A stretch of DNA of 41,452 nt from Oligoflexia bacterium (GTDB taxonomy: Bacteria > Bdellovibrionota > Bdellovibrionia > JABDDW01), in assembly GCA_043732305.1 (NCBI GenBank), contig JAYTHU010000033.1, positions 1-41,452 on the forward strand, written 5' to 3'. A program made the position numbers. Positions within the stretch are counted from its first letter, which is position 1. Each line of letters opens with the position of its first letter. This document shows, in pieces, positions 21,001 to 27,000 of this stretch.

Positions 21001-24000
21001 TGCGCCGGCACATCAGCCGCGCCGAATCTCCATAGTCGCAAAAATTAAAGAATGTTTGGCCAAAGAATATTCCGTCGCTGCAGTCTTAACAGGATCTTTA
21101 TTAGAAATATCTGAAAGAATATTGAATTGTGAGGGATCGATTTTTTAGGGAAAATCTTGAACAAAAGGGATGAGGGGAATTTGAAAATTAGATTTTTGAA
21201 TATTTCAATGAAAACTACATGTTTCTGTATCGTGAGTGTGTTTTTTCTAGCTTCGCCGAGTTTTGCTAAAGTCATTTATTTTTTTGATGTCGACAACACG
21301 TTGATCGAAACCAGGGAAGAATACTCCGGAAGTTTCCAGACAGATATTGAACTTTATAGAGTCAATAGTCGTCAAAACATGCTGCAAAATTCGATTGGAT
21401 CATTGCCTGATGTGCTCGTTGTGAGTGCCGCGGATTTAGAAAGACTTAAAAAGTATCTCGGGAAAAATGAGAATGAACCAGGAATGATCGGGAAGAAAAT
21501 CACTTTGCTCGATGGGCGAATCGTTGAGCCTGCCAATTATTTTCTACGTCCCGGAATGTCTTTTAAGAATTATCGCTCGGCAAATTTAAATGGAAAAAAA
21601 GGAAATAATTTCCAAGAAGATTTAATCTCTGCCATGAAAGTTAAGCCTTCAGCTTGGAAAGGACCGGCTTGGGAACTCTGGCGTACTAGACTCAGCAATG
21701 CAGAGACCGCACAGAACACCGGCACTCTCACGATTCGCGATCAAGAAGATGAAATGCGTGAAACTTTTAAAGACCTTAAAGGAAAAGCTATACTACTCAA
21801 TGAGCCCAATCCTAAGTTTTTAATAAACTTAGGAAGTGCGAAATGGGATCAGTTCACGATCAAACATGGGGAAGAAGACAAGCATTTTGGTAAAGAACAG
21901 TTTTTAGAAGAGTTTATTCGAAAACTTGGAATCGTCGAGCTGACAAGTGAAAACACAATCCTTGATCCGGACGGAAAAGTATCTACGCCCTATCATTATT
22001 TAGTTTTTGTCGACGATAACCAAAAAACTCTAAATAAAGTGGCTGCACTTTTCCAAAAATATTCTCAAGCAAAATTCTTTAACATTAAATTTGGTTTAGT
22101 GAACACGGGAACGAAAACTGAGATCCGTGAATCCGGGCGACCAGTATTTTCAGTGGTGACTTCCTTTGGAACATTTAGACCGGCAAGGTCAGAGGAGATC
22201 GCCGGCACTGAATTTTCTAACAGTGAAGCGTCTCAATGTCTGAATGCTCTCAATCGATTGGTTACAACAAAGGGGAGATAGTATGGGGTTCAAGGGGTTT
22301 GTTTTCTTTTCGCTAGCGATAATGTTTGCCGGGCCTTCAGTGATGGCCATGCCTTCCGGAGTGCCTGGAAATTGTGTGAATGAATTGCTCAAAATTTATT
22401 CCACACCATCGGTTGCTGCCAGCAGGATTATGGCTTTTTTTAATGTGACGCCGGAAGAGTTGGGATTAATTGCTGAGTTCAAAGAGAATGGGTGGCTTGC
22501 AGCAGTTCCAGTAGAAACTGTCATCGCACTTATAAAAGAAAAAGCACCCGATAAATATGTAAAAGGAATGAATCAGCTCCTGCATATTTATTTCGAATTT
22601 TCTAAAGAGCGTGGTGTTACTCCGCAAATTTCAGACCTCAACGCCATTTTAGCTAGACATTCTTCAGGAATAAATATTGCTGATTTAATCGGCGACGGCT
22701 TAGCATTAAAAAATCTGGATGATCTTCATACCAAGGCGCTAGATCGTCATCCCACAATTAAAAATGCACTCAACTCAAGTTATTCATCTCCGGAAATAAG
22801 AGCTAAAATAGAAGCCGCCATCAAAAGTGCTGAAGTGATTTATGTCACCTCAGCAGTGAATGGTGCTCCTGTTGAACGAGAGGCGCTTGAGGCACTTCTT
22901 AATATGGCTAAACTAAATAAGGGTGTTGTGTTAATTCGTCCTGTGAATTTAAGCACCGATGCGCTCGATCCCCTTTTGCGAGAAGCCGCAAATCAAAATC
23001 CCAATGTCTTCATCTCAATAGATGAGATCCGCCTAAATCAATGGTGGAATATCAATGACATTAAAGTGATGGGAAAACAAATCAACACCTTACAAGGAAC
23101 GCAAGCTCGCTGGGAACGGGGAGTGAACCAAATCATTTCTGCACCAAGGATTGAACTTGAAACGGTTGCAACTGGCGACAATGTCATCACTCCACACAGA
23201 GTTATGACCACTGGAGCAATCACGCAGCCAGATTATCGCGGCAACAAATGGATTCAAGGTCGCACGGACAAATTAGCAAAAGATCTGCATTCCATTGGAG
23301 TTTTGGTATTAGAGAAAACTCAGTTTGACGGAAAAACTTTTGGGCTTCCCGTTTCTGGAAATTTTCATCCTCGTCATATTCAGTACACCTCCGAAGCAAA
23401 AGGCTTTGTTGATTTAGGAGTTCTTTACACTGGTACTTCGGCTAAAAGTATTTCCATCGAAGCTTTAGTTTTAGGCGATATCCACGTTCAAGATACAGAT
23501 CCTCGTTTGCTGATTTCCATTCGGGAGGCCATCGACAGATTTCATCCTAAAATTATTGTGGCGCATGACTTGATGAATGGCACTTCGGTGAATCCTCATG
23601 AGAAAGACCAAAAAGCGTCTCTCATGAATAAAGCGTCCCAAGGTTTGCTGGATGTGGTTCGAGAATTATCTCAAGTGGCCAATTTTATAAACGCGCTATT
23701 GGAGCTCGACCCAAGTCTGCAAGTTTTAATCGTCAGGTCCAATCATCCTGATTGGTTGGGTCGTTGGGTAGAGGGAAGTTATCTTCAGTCACCGCAAAAT
23801 CAGGCCATTTACAACGAATTGCAAAATCTAAAAGCGCAAGGTGGCGATGTTTTTGAATACGCACTCGTTCATGGAGTTGGCGGAAGTGTGACTATCAACA
23901 AGTACAAACGAGTGATCTTTTCTCGCGGCAGTTACAAAGTTGGACCTGCCGGCAATCAAATTGAGCTTGGATTTCATGGCGATAAAGGTGCGAACGGTGC

Positions 24001-27000
24001 AAAAGGCTCCATACAATCTTTTGCCCGCGGCCTCGAAAGGGTTGTTTACGGTCATACACACACTACAAGAATCAAAGAAGGCGCGATCAATGTTGGCACT
24101 TCCACAACTTTGGAGCTTCCCTACATGATCGGTGGTCTGAGCAGTTGGAGTCAGTCGATGCTACTCGTTGGTAATTACGGGGATGCTCAAATGATTATCA
24201 ACGAAGGTGGAGAGCTTTATGCCCCTGAAAGTTACAAGCCTAACGTCAATTTCTTCATGAAGAGTTACCCGAAAATTATCCCTACGATCCAACCAAGGGA
24301 TGCTGGTCCTGGGCAGATTGATCAGTATTCGAGATGACGGCTCGCCGCTAAGCCAACTTCAGAAAAGTGGCCTAGTTTCATTATATTGCGCCAGGTATTC
24401 TTGACTTTCCTTGAGCGTTCCGGTTAATCTTTGGATAGGGAGATTAACCGTGAATCGAGATCAAGAGACTAAAGCAAATGTACCTAGAGTATTCGATGTT
24501 TCTATCGCAGGAATACCGCTCAAGCTGAAGTCAGATAAAGATCCTGAATCCGTAAAAAAGTTAATTTCTTATGTCGATCAAAAAGTCCAAGAAGCGCTGC
24601 CAGCTACTAAAAGTGGCTCAGTTCAAAATGCTGCTCTTCTTGCTCTTTTAAATTTGGCAGACGAACACTTCGGGCTGAAGGCTAACGCTCTGAATCAGCT
24701 CGAAAAATTTGAGAAGAAGACTCTGAAAATAATTGAAGATTTAGAGTCAACAAAAGCATCGGGAAAAACAGGAAATAAATCGAGTGGCTCCAACAACAAC
24801 ATTAGCAACAGCGATAACTTGATCGCCACGCAAACGAAGCCGCTGGATATATAATTGAAAACACTTATGAGAACACAACAAAACAGTTTTCCCCTTCTCA
24901 AAAAATAATCAGAGCCTAATTTACGGTGTGATTGTGCTTAGTTCTATGGTCTCGAAAAATTTATGGCGAAACAAAATGTTGGATATCCGCTCGCAACTAG
25001 GACCGGATAAAGCCAGTAAGTTTAACCGTGACCTCTGCAAAAATATTCTGTTTGTTCTCGCCGAAGGCGGGGGCTTAGTCAGCACTTCAAATCGTGATGT
25101 GAATGCCCGTCCTCTTTGGGCCAGTTACAAAAGCTTCCGTTGGGAAGCTGACCCCACACAATCTGTTTTCGACTCAACTCAATCTGTCCGTTGGGCTTAT
25201 CCTCGAATTATAAATAATAGTGAAATTCAGTTTTTAGTTCCCTTTGAGAAAGATGCTATGTGGCTGAAGAATTCTTGGGGGCTTTGGGAGCCAGATCTGC
25301 GTACTGCGGAAGTGGCTGAAGTGTCTTCTTTAACAGGTATTTTGGTACCAGGTGTGGCTTTTGATCGGAAGGGTCATCGCTTGGGATATGGAAAAGGTTT
25401 TTATGATAGGAGTCTGGCCGATTATACCGGACTCAAGGTTGGGGTTTGCTTCTCCGTGCAAGTCGCGGACGAGGTTTTGCCATTTGATGAAAAAGACGTT
25501 TTGATGAACTACATCGTGACAGATAACGAGATTTTAAAAGTTCAGCAAGGCGATAAAGAAACGAGGAGTTTGGTATGAGTGTAATGGTAATAATATTTGC
25601 AGTGTTAGGCGCTGCAATTGGAGCTGGTGCGGCGATTTTTATAAAAAAGAATTTCGAAACCAAGAAATTAAAATCTGCTGACGATCAAGCTAAAGCAATG
25701 ATCAACAAGGCGCGCGAGCAGGCCAATGTCATCGATTTGCAAGCTCGTCAAAAAGCGAAGCAGATAGAACAGACTGCTCAACGTTTGCAACAAGATTTGG
25801 AACGGGACAATCGTCGTCGTGAAAGCGATGCCCAGAAAATGGCCGTCGAGTCCGACAGAAGATTGAAAGAAAAAGAAGGTCAGTATCAGCAAAAACTTGA
25901 GAGTGTTGATCACAAAGAAAAGCGCTTAAAGGAATTAGAAGAAAAAAATCATACAATAGAAAAACAACTTCAAGATAAACTCGAGCACATTTCTTCTCTT
26001 ACTCGCGATGAAGCTAAGAAAACTTTGATTGAATCTTTAGAGGGCGAAGCCAAGATGGACGCCGCCAAAAGTATCAAAATTATCGAAGAAGATGCAAAGC
26101 AAGAAGCAGAAAAGCGCGCCACAAAAATTATTGCATTGGCCATTGGTCGATACGCTGGAGAATATTCGTCTGCTAGGACGGTGTCCGCCATTGTTCTTCC
26201 CAGTGAAGAAATGAAGGGCCGAATTATCGGTCGTGAAGGTAGAAATATCAGAGCACTTGAAGCTGTCACTGGAATGGACATCATCATCGATGACACTCCT
26301 GAATCCATTATCGTTTCTGGATTTGATCCTGTCAGACGCGAGATTGCGAAAATGACCATTGAAGGTCTCATGCAAGATGGAAGAATTCATCCTTCTCGTA
26401 TTGAAGAACTTGCTGAAAAATCTCGGCAGATACTAATGAAAAATATGAAAGACGACGGCGAAAAGGCAATGTTTGATTTAGGTGTGCACGGTGTGCACCC
26501 TGAAATTGTCAGACTGATCGGTTCACTTAAATATCGAACCAGTTACACCCAGAGCAATTATTCTCACTCCATCGAAGTTGGATTTTTGGCCGGCATGATG
26601 GCCGGAGAACTTGGACAAAACGTCAAGGCTGCCCGTCGCGGTGGTCTCCTTCATGATTTGGGTAAAGCGCTCGATCACAATATTGAAGGAAGTCACGCGG
26701 TCATTGGTGCGGAATTTGCTAAAAAATATGGTGAGTCTGCAGAAATTGTTCACGCCATTCGTGCCCATCATGAAGATGAGAAGCCAAATTCAATTTTAGC
26801 TCACTTGGTTCAATCCGCCGATGCACTTTCTGGTGCTAGACCCGGAGCAAGACGTGAAGTCATGCAGAGTTATGTGAATCGTCTGGAAGATCTGGAAACC
26901 ATTGGAAATAGTTTTGACGGAGTCATTCGAACTTTCGCTATCCAAGCAGGACGTGAAATCCGCGTGATGGTTGATAGTGAAAAGGTAACTGACGAACAAA

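Follow-up and report, generated by a model that had tools for sequence, protein, structure and literature searches.

The window analysed here, a 41,452-nucleotide stretch from an uncultured Oligoflexia bacterium, carries two adjoining forward-strand genes, the first encoding a predicted exported phosphatase of the HAD superfamily and the second a metallophosphoesterase of the phage T5 A1 family, the only A1 copy in this genome (Table 1). The genes around A1 are smc, ftsY, a Na/Pi cotransporter, an S41 peptidase, zapA, 5-FCL, rny and tyrS, and no phage genes were recognised among the scanned neighbours, so that the housekeeping setting free of prophage genes given in the preliminary description is borne out. 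In runs X1 and X2, possibly the reads behind this assembly, depth stays flat at ~9-10 over the cassette and on both sides of it, contigs run from the cassette into the housekeeping genes, and GC3 and codon use stand at the 41st and 39th percentiles of the genome. Genome G229 of the same family has the pair at the same site, with HAD and A1 inverted as one unit, and outside that family the gene neighbours of A1-HAD vary. Promoter and terminator scans at the locus gave results at chance level, flanking repeats were not telling, the Rfam search returned 0 matches, NCBIfam gave no meaningful match for the locus proteins, and the PADLOC defence-system models found 0 families for six proteins.

Residues 177-644 of A1 align with positions 80-538 of the 542-position phrog_1745 profile (459 positions), with a weak additional match to the phrog_221 metallo-phosphoesterase; the Pfam search of the window protein gave no match. 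Tblastn against phages matched 1128 records, and among the 40 matches listed many are annotated as A1 or DNA transfer protein and identities are 23-30%, apart from 36% over an 88-residue piece. The top Atlas feature matches are mostly viral clusters, one of them named as the T5 A1 family. The profile and phage matches together uphold the homology with T5 A1 that had been claimed, as does the sequence the metallophosphoesterase motifs GDIH, HD, SNH, FHG and GHTH, which the alignment extends to a full calcineurin-like ligand set (DHDNHHHH) with all eight positions intact and identical to T5-like A1. The eight ligands are also present in 141 of 142 non-exported rows and exactly so in 70 of 83 exported rows. 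Weak Metallophos matches occur in 5 of 53 family members, and PDB sequence searches returned nothing for the phosphoesterase core, with only sigma-factor-like matches to the helical repeats. These repeats occur in one to three copies per member, with a Sigma70_r3 match in 28 of the 53 that is absent from the window protein (P0001), and profile comparison (2.4%) did not detect a duplicated phosphoesterase fold in the N-terminal half. We infer a nuclease function for A1 from homology, as the evidence for T5 A1 itself is in vivo only; T5 A1 by itself is enough to destroy the chromosomal DNA of E. coli, with activation of a host nuclease left open by the authors and an interaction with RNA polymerase reported (10.64898/2026.04.02.716235).

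The HAD partner shows superfamily motifs I, II (TLTIRD) and acidic IV (VFVDDN), and the consensus of the partner alignment (A4) retains DxD and TARGH. Library matches to DUF2608/HAD are weak and all below cut-off, the Atlas neighbours include HAD-type clusters, and the HAD alignment used as a homolog query recovered only two proteins. The partner resembles a cellular HAD family that has no signal and whose profile gave matches, most of them weak, in 197 of 401 phylum genomes. The HAD stop lies 1 nucleotide upstream of the A1 ATG and a ribosome-binding-site-like sequence falls within the HAD 3' end (gaps in relatives range from 0 to a few dozen nucleotides); translational coupling is likely. 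Of the 42 genomes with exported A1, 38 have the HAD gene in front of it and at least 3 have no HAD, and none of the other A1 loci checked (58 viral, 8 from named phages and 13 non-exported ones in genomes) had a HAD match nearby. Orthology of the partner with the T5 phosphatase Dmp (phrog_415) was considered and rejected (BLASTP E 0.06; HHalign 13.8%, motif I only), and phrog_415 matched 1 of 18 partner rows (E 0.27). The earlier view is upheld in part, for A1 homology, the intact metal site, the signal-bearing cellular clade and the Cys tag, and is incomplete as an account of the locus, where the unit is a two-gene HAD and A1 cassette.

Table 1. Features of the HAD and A1 cassette, in window coordinates
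Feature	Position	Strand	Evidence
HAD-superfamily phosphatase, predicted exported, 357 aa, signal-like residues 1-20	21208..22281	+	motifs, conserved pairing
HAD motif I DxD (D27-V28-D29), in FFDVDNT	21286..21294	+	sequence; DxD consensus in alignment A4
HAD C-terminal Cys tag C344-L-N-A-L	22237..22251	+	Cys in last 32 aa of 41/41 partners
RBS-like AAGGGGAG within HAD 3' end, 5 nt upstream of A1 ATG	22270..22277	+	sequence
T5 A1-family metallophosphoesterase, 684 aa, exported type	22283..24337	+	phrog_1745 E 1.4e-66; clade (100/99)
Predicted A1 Sec/SPI signal peptide, residues 1-22, cleavage after VMA	22283..22348	+	sequence; heuristic
A1 N-terminal Cys tag C31-V-N-E-L, only Cys in A1	22373..22387	+	79/81 signal-bearing clade rows
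A1 helical repeat unit, residues 96-157, like sigma-70 region 3 / HNH-associated repeat; predicted DNA- or RNAP-binding	22568..22753	+	family repeat HMM E 2.5e-13
Calcineurin-like metal site D399, H401, D429, N487, H488, H565, H591, H593	23474..24061	+	alignment
A1 C-terminal DQY tail motif, clade-specific	24320..24328	+	60/81 exported vs 2/137 non-exported rows

Predicted export signals and the cysteine tag

Signal peptides were judged by our own hydrophobicity and cleavage-site heuristic together with conservation, and on this basis the window A1 has a tripartite n/h/c signal with a small-x-Ala cleavage site. The same pattern is present in 81 of the 86 exported-clade rows, the remaining five being N-terminal fragments. 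Counting by eye reproduces the earlier figures for the best relatives, with hits P0002-P0059 less five N-terminal fragments giving 53 of 53 with a signal and 52 with the Cys, and agrees that signals are few lower down, where a signal seems present in 16 of 90 (P0061-P0150). As a correction to the earlier account, the low-scoring signal-bearing hits are mostly divergent members of the exported clade.

The A1 clade Cys is positioned 12-41 residues past the start of the h-region, mostly after a polar spacer, and in two family members (P0086 and L205) the tag is at the C terminus instead. In the HAD partners a Cys falls within the last 32 amino acids in 41 of 41 proteins, compared with 0/41 and 2/41 in the two preceding windows. 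A lipoprotein (SPII) lipobox is ruled out, the A1 Cys being set off from the h-region and the HAD Cys being C-terminal. The tag extends to about one-quarter of the strictly defined exported proteins in this genome, and among 173 strict signal-peptide proteins it is found N-terminally in 31 (2-5 in shifted windows) and C-terminally in 15 (0-4 in shifted windows). A Pfam scan of 65 tagged proteins, chosen by eye out of larger regex lists, gave matches for 25, of which 13 are ATP-, SAM- or aminoacyl-tRNA-dependent or chaperone-type (4 of these 13 are weak matches at E 4e-5 to 5e-4, and false positives account for 2 of the 25). In 55 untagged controls 35 had Pfam matches, mostly to envelope proteins and with one AAA ATPase. 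A 400-kb sample of the A1-negative genome G099 shows the tag without clear enrichment (4/21 versus 0-3).

Because many of the tagged proteins need ATP or tRNA, the tag points to a destination inside prey. It is a tentative proposal that Bdellovibrionota predators possess an undescribed delivery route, in which a single C-x-x-x-hydrophobic label, N- or C-terminal on a protein exported by Sec, would direct dozens of enzymes that act in the cytoplasm to the prey interior. Among them would be an A1 DNase captured from phage and coupled to a host-derived nucleotidase, a T5-style takeover module turned predator weapon.

Distribution and descent of exported A1

A1 family matches are found in 48 of 401 phylum genomes, with 42 of the exported type distributed over 15 families, four without a signal and two weak fragments. 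The proposed signal-bearing cellular clade across the phylum is thus supported, although not every match is exported (42/48). Family f2 has 0 exported copies in 53 genomes, and since only 42 of the 401 genomes carry exported A1, none of them in f2, it is not required for predation generally. Non-exported A1 can sit in phage-like settings in the phylum, as in L115, where a tape-measure gene is present, and in L117, which has an integrase. Single-protein scans of genome contigs for named relatives found nothing.

The exported forms make up a single clade (100/99), and no viral copy examined has a convincing signal peptide. The non-exported proteins closest to them come from uncultured viruses and Ochrobactrum phage rather than from T5, and T5-like A1 lies in a separate clade. 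The MAD root is on the T5 side (0.171 versus 0.201) and lies within the viral sequences, as does the best non-reversible root; a root on the stem of the exported clade is not rejected (AU 0.10), and no usable outgroup scored well enough for rooting. Domestication from phage to cell, as first suggested, is accordingly the favoured direction in the trees, with the exported-stem root staying statistically compatible. A second domestication was considered for P0106 and P0113, which have a signal and Cys and are placed in the phage-like clade by free ML trees, and was set aside because the tests do not reject one shared origin (AU 0.73 for the quick and 0.29 for the careful tree). A1 quite probably derives from phages outside the T5 lineage, and it would have been coupled to a HAD of a cellular family.

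Candidate function and rival explanations

The reading preferred here, with a probability of about 0.55, is that the exported HAD and A1 cassette is likely delivered into prey and degrades prey DNA to nucleosides; the label predator rests on kinship for this uncultured organism. Both proteins would leave the predator by Sec export, after which the Cys tag may route them onward into the prey interior. There the A1 helical repeats would bind prey DNA and the bimetal site hydrolyse it, likely cutting the prey chromosome, and HAD would likely dephosphorylate the released dNMPs to give nucleosides and phosphate for uptake, an action that we infer only from the gene pairing. Export would also spare the predator cytoplasm from a potent DNase, a form of self-protection suggested because no immunity gene is evident.

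Sec export by itself gets proteins only to the periplasm, and the pair may instead work there or in the medium, scavenging extracellular DNA for phosphate and nucleosides. The pairing of nuclease with nucleotidase would suit such a role, a Na/Pi cotransporter is placed two genes upstream both here and in G229, and Bd0934 and Bd3507 of B. bacteriovorus are secreted during prey-free growth too (PMC7925074). However, the cotransporter neighbour occurs at 1 of the 17 loci tested, that of G229 in the same family, and the tag is common to ATP- and tRNA-requiring enzymes that would be idle outside a cell, with ordinary envelope proteins lacking it, making scavenging unlikely. Calcineurin-like sites accept many substrates, and this breadth together with the Sigma70_r3 matches would fit an exported effector other than a DNase, its sigma-3-like repeats binding prey RNA polymerase or nucleoid and leading to transcription shut-off, prey nuclease activation or other phosphoester hydrolysis. 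The reported RNA polymerase interaction of T5 A1 and the host-nuclease activation left open (10.64898/2026.04.02.716235) point in the same direction, but the ligands are those of T5-like A1, T5 A1 is by itself enough to cause loss of DNA in vivo, and a coupled phosphatase suits nucleotide breakdown; such an effector appears quite unlikely.

The patchy distribution and the variable neighbours outside the family resemble those of conflict genes, as expected of a periplasmic nuclease with a defensive role, which might degrade phage or plasmid DNA on entry, or clear prey prophages and defence genes and so shield the feeding predator. This is improbable given the empty PADLOC result, the housekeeping context and stable site within the family, and a nucleotidase partner for which defence has no need. 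A locus left over from a prophage, or an assembly error, whose N terminus is hydrophobic by chance would recall the phage-like contexts of L115 and L117, but this reading is already largely refuted by the flat depth, bridging contigs, typical GC3 and codon use, synteny with G229 and a signal kept in 81 clade rows, and is barely credible.

Degradation of prey DNA by the cassette would bear on an unsettled question, namely which of the enzymes of Bdellovibrio-type predators break down the DNA of prey, because the tested nucleases were dispensable (PMC7925074). Experimental evidence on the route of predator hydrolases into prey is likewise limited (PMC12428579). The cassette is a strong candidate prey DNase for 15 mostly unstudied families, the Cys tag offers a reporter-ready handle on the delivery route, and the soluble cellular homologs are fresh material on whether A1 proteins are nucleases.

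Comparison with known systems

Likened from sequence, A1 has the motif order GDxH, HD, NH, H, HxH in common with Mre11/SbcD (PF00149; phrog_221), whereas it has no SbcC/Rad50 partner and possesses an extra N-terminal half of ~200 amino acids and an export signal. In B. bacteriovorus signal-peptide DNases are secreted into the bdelloplast, and Bd0934 and Bd3507 (with candidates Bd1244 and Bd1934) are, by description, likewise signal-peptide predator nucleases proposed to digest prey DNA; the available part of that account mentions neither the A1 family nor a HAD partner or Cys tag (PMC7925074).

The closest comparison is with T5, whose A1 is homologous to the window protein over ~460 residues at ~28% identity (T5-like A1), with the eight ligands in common and a helical region N-terminal to the core. 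The exported forms differ in adding the signal peptide, Cys tag and DQY tail, in being chromosomal and in length (median 775 versus 554 amino acids), and their housekeeping context and signal contrast with the phage role of A1 as a cytoplasmic pre-early gene beside A2. T5 turns nucleotides into nucleosides through Dmp (10.64898/2026.04.02.716235), and in both modules the gene of an A1-family enzyme is linked to that of a phosphatase with HAD motifs, although the partner here is no detectable Dmp ortholog (Atlas lead 0.86) and both cassette proteins have predicted export signals. With A1 from a non-T5 phage lineage and HAD from a cellular family, the likeness to the T5 pair is probably convergent. 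If true, a viral host-killing enzyme has been turned into a cellular predation tool that converges on the phage logic of DNase plus nucleotidase.

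The A1 gene and its upstream partner

The profile search matches residues 177-644 of the A1 protein to the PHROG family phrog_1745 (E 1.4e-66), Pfam gives no match for A1, and tblastn matched 1128 phage records with many labelled A1 among the matches listed. The neighboring genes named by Pfam are smc, ftsY, a Na/Pi cotransporter, an S41 peptidase, zapA, 5-FCL, rny and tyrS. The genome contains one copy of A1 with a base composition typical of the genome (GC3 in the 41st percentile, codon use in the 39th), and contigs from two runs that may be the source link it with housekeeping genes, the depth staying flat. 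As the same-family genome G229 also has the same gene order around it, A1 is a resident chromosomal gene. 6S RNA often sits between zapA and 5-FCL, and Rfam finds none there in the window.

The adjacent gene, for a predicted HAD-type phosphatase, encodes a signal-like N terminus, the HAD motifs I, II (T/S-x-R) and IV (acidic), and a C-terminal Cys. A HAD homolog lies directly upstream of A1 in 38/42 exported-type genomes (missing in G067, G010 and G096; the contig of G108 has no match), and none was found beside A1 at 58 viral, 8 named-phage and 13 non-exported genome loci. In G229 the two genes are turned around together at the same site. Three family f21 loci missing the HAD gene (L004, L007, L010) share a signal-bearing protein of 177-180 amino acids ending RYYF upstream of A1, which we read as outer-membrane-barrel-like. 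The partner profile matches 197/401 phylum genomes, mostly weakly, and the HAD paralog at locus L198, of an unnamed family with weak matches in about half of these genomes, had no informative match in NCBIfam, PADLOC or PHROG. The preliminary description of an A1 homolog in a housekeeping region is borne out by the phrog_1745 match, the neighbors and the G229 gene order; it took A1 alone, and the unit is larger, comprising two genes with an overlooked HAD partner.

Features of the window and of related loci (C, contig of the window's genome G000; L, locus; G, genome)
Feature	Location	Strand	Remark
HAD partner ORF	ATG 21208; stop 1 nt before A1	+	directly upstream of A1
RBS-like AAGGGGAG	5 nt upstream of A1 start	+	
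A1 ORF	window 22283-24337	+	684 aa
Metallophosphoesterase ligands of A1	D399, H401, D429, N487, H488, H565, H591, H593		from alignment
zapA ORF	window 24411-24928		~50 codons longer than G229 counterpart
eutB, eutC, BMC-domain gene	window 30839-33782		ethanolamine ammonia-lyase, microcompartment shell protein; sigma-54 two-component pair adjoins
DUF4423/HTH protein, then weak HNH-domain protein	window 4854-7076		
337-aa ORF	window 38358-39371		weak shikimate-dehydrogenase C-terminal similarity; flanked by ribF and T2SS/T4P ATPase
Exported A1, 1174 aa	L121:5940-9461 (G225, single-contig genome)		much longer N-terminal repeat region; HAD upstream
Divergent A1 without signal	L118:8073-10175 (G259)		amid lon-, helicase-, sbcC-, dnaB-, sbcD-like genes
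HAD paralog without signal	L198:310-1254 (G000:C148)		motifs YFFDFDDN, TARGH
Tandem array of Cys-tagged exported proteins	C50:1270-12289		signal-bearing PrkA-AAA and YeaH/SpoVR-type proteins
Same	C188:322-9082; C212:16637-21933		MoxR-type ATPases
Same	C31:24491-39780; C239:1473-12529; C196:45004-48436		

Distribution and origin of the exported type

Matches to phrog_1745 occur in 48/401 phylum genomes and 0/14 controls. Two of these (G399, G166) are weak fragments outside the 46 inspected, which divide into 42 with the exported type (15 families; G148 counted by clade position, its N terminus not seen) and four without a signal, whose surroundings hold, one each, a tape-measure gene, an integrase, a phage-type exonuclease and lon/helicase/sbcCD-like genes. 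Family f2 has matches in 2/53 genomes, neither copy with a signal. A second phylum has 4/131, three being the exported type with the HAD partner, and a third has 1/93 with an N terminus resembling a mis-chosen start more than a signal. The hydrophobicity cut-off was passed by 0/58 viral-contig A1 proteins (a few N-truncated) and by 1/8 from named phages, unconvincing as a signal. Archaeal and Bacteroidota contigs hold some non-exported copies; four Methanosarcinales records (L042, L044, L046, L049) have signal-less homologs, with no phage structural genes among the neighbors scanned at L042 and L046.

In trees built from the core region only, the exported proteins form a single branch (FastTree 96; 86/225 rows, 81 signal-bearing and 5 fragments), also seen in IQ-TREE with 99 (66 chosen rows) and 100/99 (40 chosen rows). 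The sister group consists of unnamed, viral-contig and Ochrobactrum-phage proteins. The A1s of T5-like, Caulobacter, Rhizobium and Flavobacterium phages fall together in another clade, which excludes T5 as the donor. MAD places the root on the T5 side, scoring 0.171 there against 0.201 on the exported stem, the non-reversible test favors viral roots, and the Atlas neighbors of A1, counting members with records, are 83-94% viral, which together make passage from phage to cell likely. The proposed domestication from phage is favored by the viral roots, although the exported stem is not rejected as root (AU 0.10), nor are many roots inside the exported clade; the earlier signal-peptide and Cys counts among A1 relatives were reproduced by eye. 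A second origin for the homologs P0106 and P0113 lacked statistical support.

The eight ligand residues are identical in T5-like A1 and in 141/142 non-exported rows and exact in 70/83 signal-bearing rows, the other 13 comprising four D-to-E changes, eight H-to-D changes and one truncation. One to three helical repeats precede the core in family members, with Sigma70_r3 matches in 28/53 (the window's A1 not among them), and from their sequence these repeats may bind DNA or RNAP.

The Cys tag

A Cys tag, C-x-x-x-hydrophobic, is present in 79/81 signal-bearing clade rows 12-41 residues past the start of the h-region, a position that excludes a lipobox. All 41 HAD partners examined have a Cys within the last 32 residues (control windows 0 and 2). 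The A1 homologs P0086 and L205 lack the N-terminal Cys and have a C-terminal motif, and P0029 is without any Cys. In the window's genome 46/173 strict signal-peptide proteins of at least 250 amino acids are tagged, 31 N-terminally (2-5 in shifted windows) and 15 C-terminally (0-4); small 400-kb samples give 4/21 versus 0-3 in G099 and 3/9 versus 0 in G225.

Sixty-five tagged proteins were picked by eye before the Pfam scan, 60 from 99 plus 38 looser regex hits and five from earlier lists. Pfam matched 25, two being false positives, and 13 of the 25 (four weak) are cytoplasm-type enzymes or chaperones: PrkA AAA, YeaH/SpoVR, two ATP-grasp, two Leu/Phe-tRNA transferase, two MoxR, Clp-like AAA, SelO, ABC1 kinase, DnaJ and a methyltransferase. 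Among 55 of 127 untagged controls, drawn from the 20 densest regions, 35 matched Pfam (TPR, beta-barrels, BamA, secretin, PBPs, DegP and similar); these also include a single AAA ATPase, a weak CDP-glycerol transferase and two cytoplasmic proteins with false signals. Cofactors of the tagged enzymes are scarce in the periplasm and medium, which points to the prey interior as the destination of Cys-tagged proteins. The C50, C188 and C212 arrays hold complete cytoplasmic multi-protein systems bearing predicted export signals. The window's genome also encodes a Flp pilin.

Predicted function and comparison with T5

The reading we prefer, at a probability of roughly 0.55, is that A1 and HAD form a Sec-exported pair delivered into prey by the tag and converting DNA to nucleosides and phosphate. 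Both would cross the inner membrane via Sec, sparing the predator's chromosome from the DNase, and a tag-dependent route would carry them on to the prey interior, where A1 would break down DNA and HAD would free nucleosides and phosphate for uptake. The pairing with A1 suggests dNMP specificity for HAD.

Scavenging of free DNA by the pair is possible but unlikely. That A1 is an effector other than a nuclease seems somewhat less probable again. A role in defence is improbable, and an artefactual cassette can almost be dismissed.

The cassette is genuine and, as a variant within a known phage family, had not been described before; its two genes, tagged and predicted to be exported, occur in 15 families. 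The literature searched, mostly outside subscription papers and in main texts, gave no account of A1 homologs that are cellular or exported, of the HAD pairing or of the Cys tag; cellular homologs could be listed in the supplements of the T5 preprint and PMC11656739, and the words cysteine, signal peptide, phage and metallophos are absent from the main text of the latter. Secreted Bdellovibrio DNases are dispensable, one by one and combined (PMC7925074). The available part of PMC12428579 calls evidence on predator enzymes and secretion still limited, and that of PMC12419801 describes two-gene secreted effector systems in Bdellovibrionota.

In T5, loss of the host chromosome in vivo requires A1, which also suffices for it, evidence obtained without an in vitro nuclease test and with a host nuclease as a possible mediator; the phosphatase Dmp acts with A1 and converts nucleotides to nucleosides (10.64898/2026.04.02.716235, accessible part). 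The pair described here likewise places an A1-family enzyme beside a HAD-motif protein, but the partner was rejected as a Dmp ortholog, with no relationship detectable by sequence or profile comparison. Since it is instead related to the signal-less cellular HAD on contig C148, the likeness to T5 A1 and Dmp is probably convergent.
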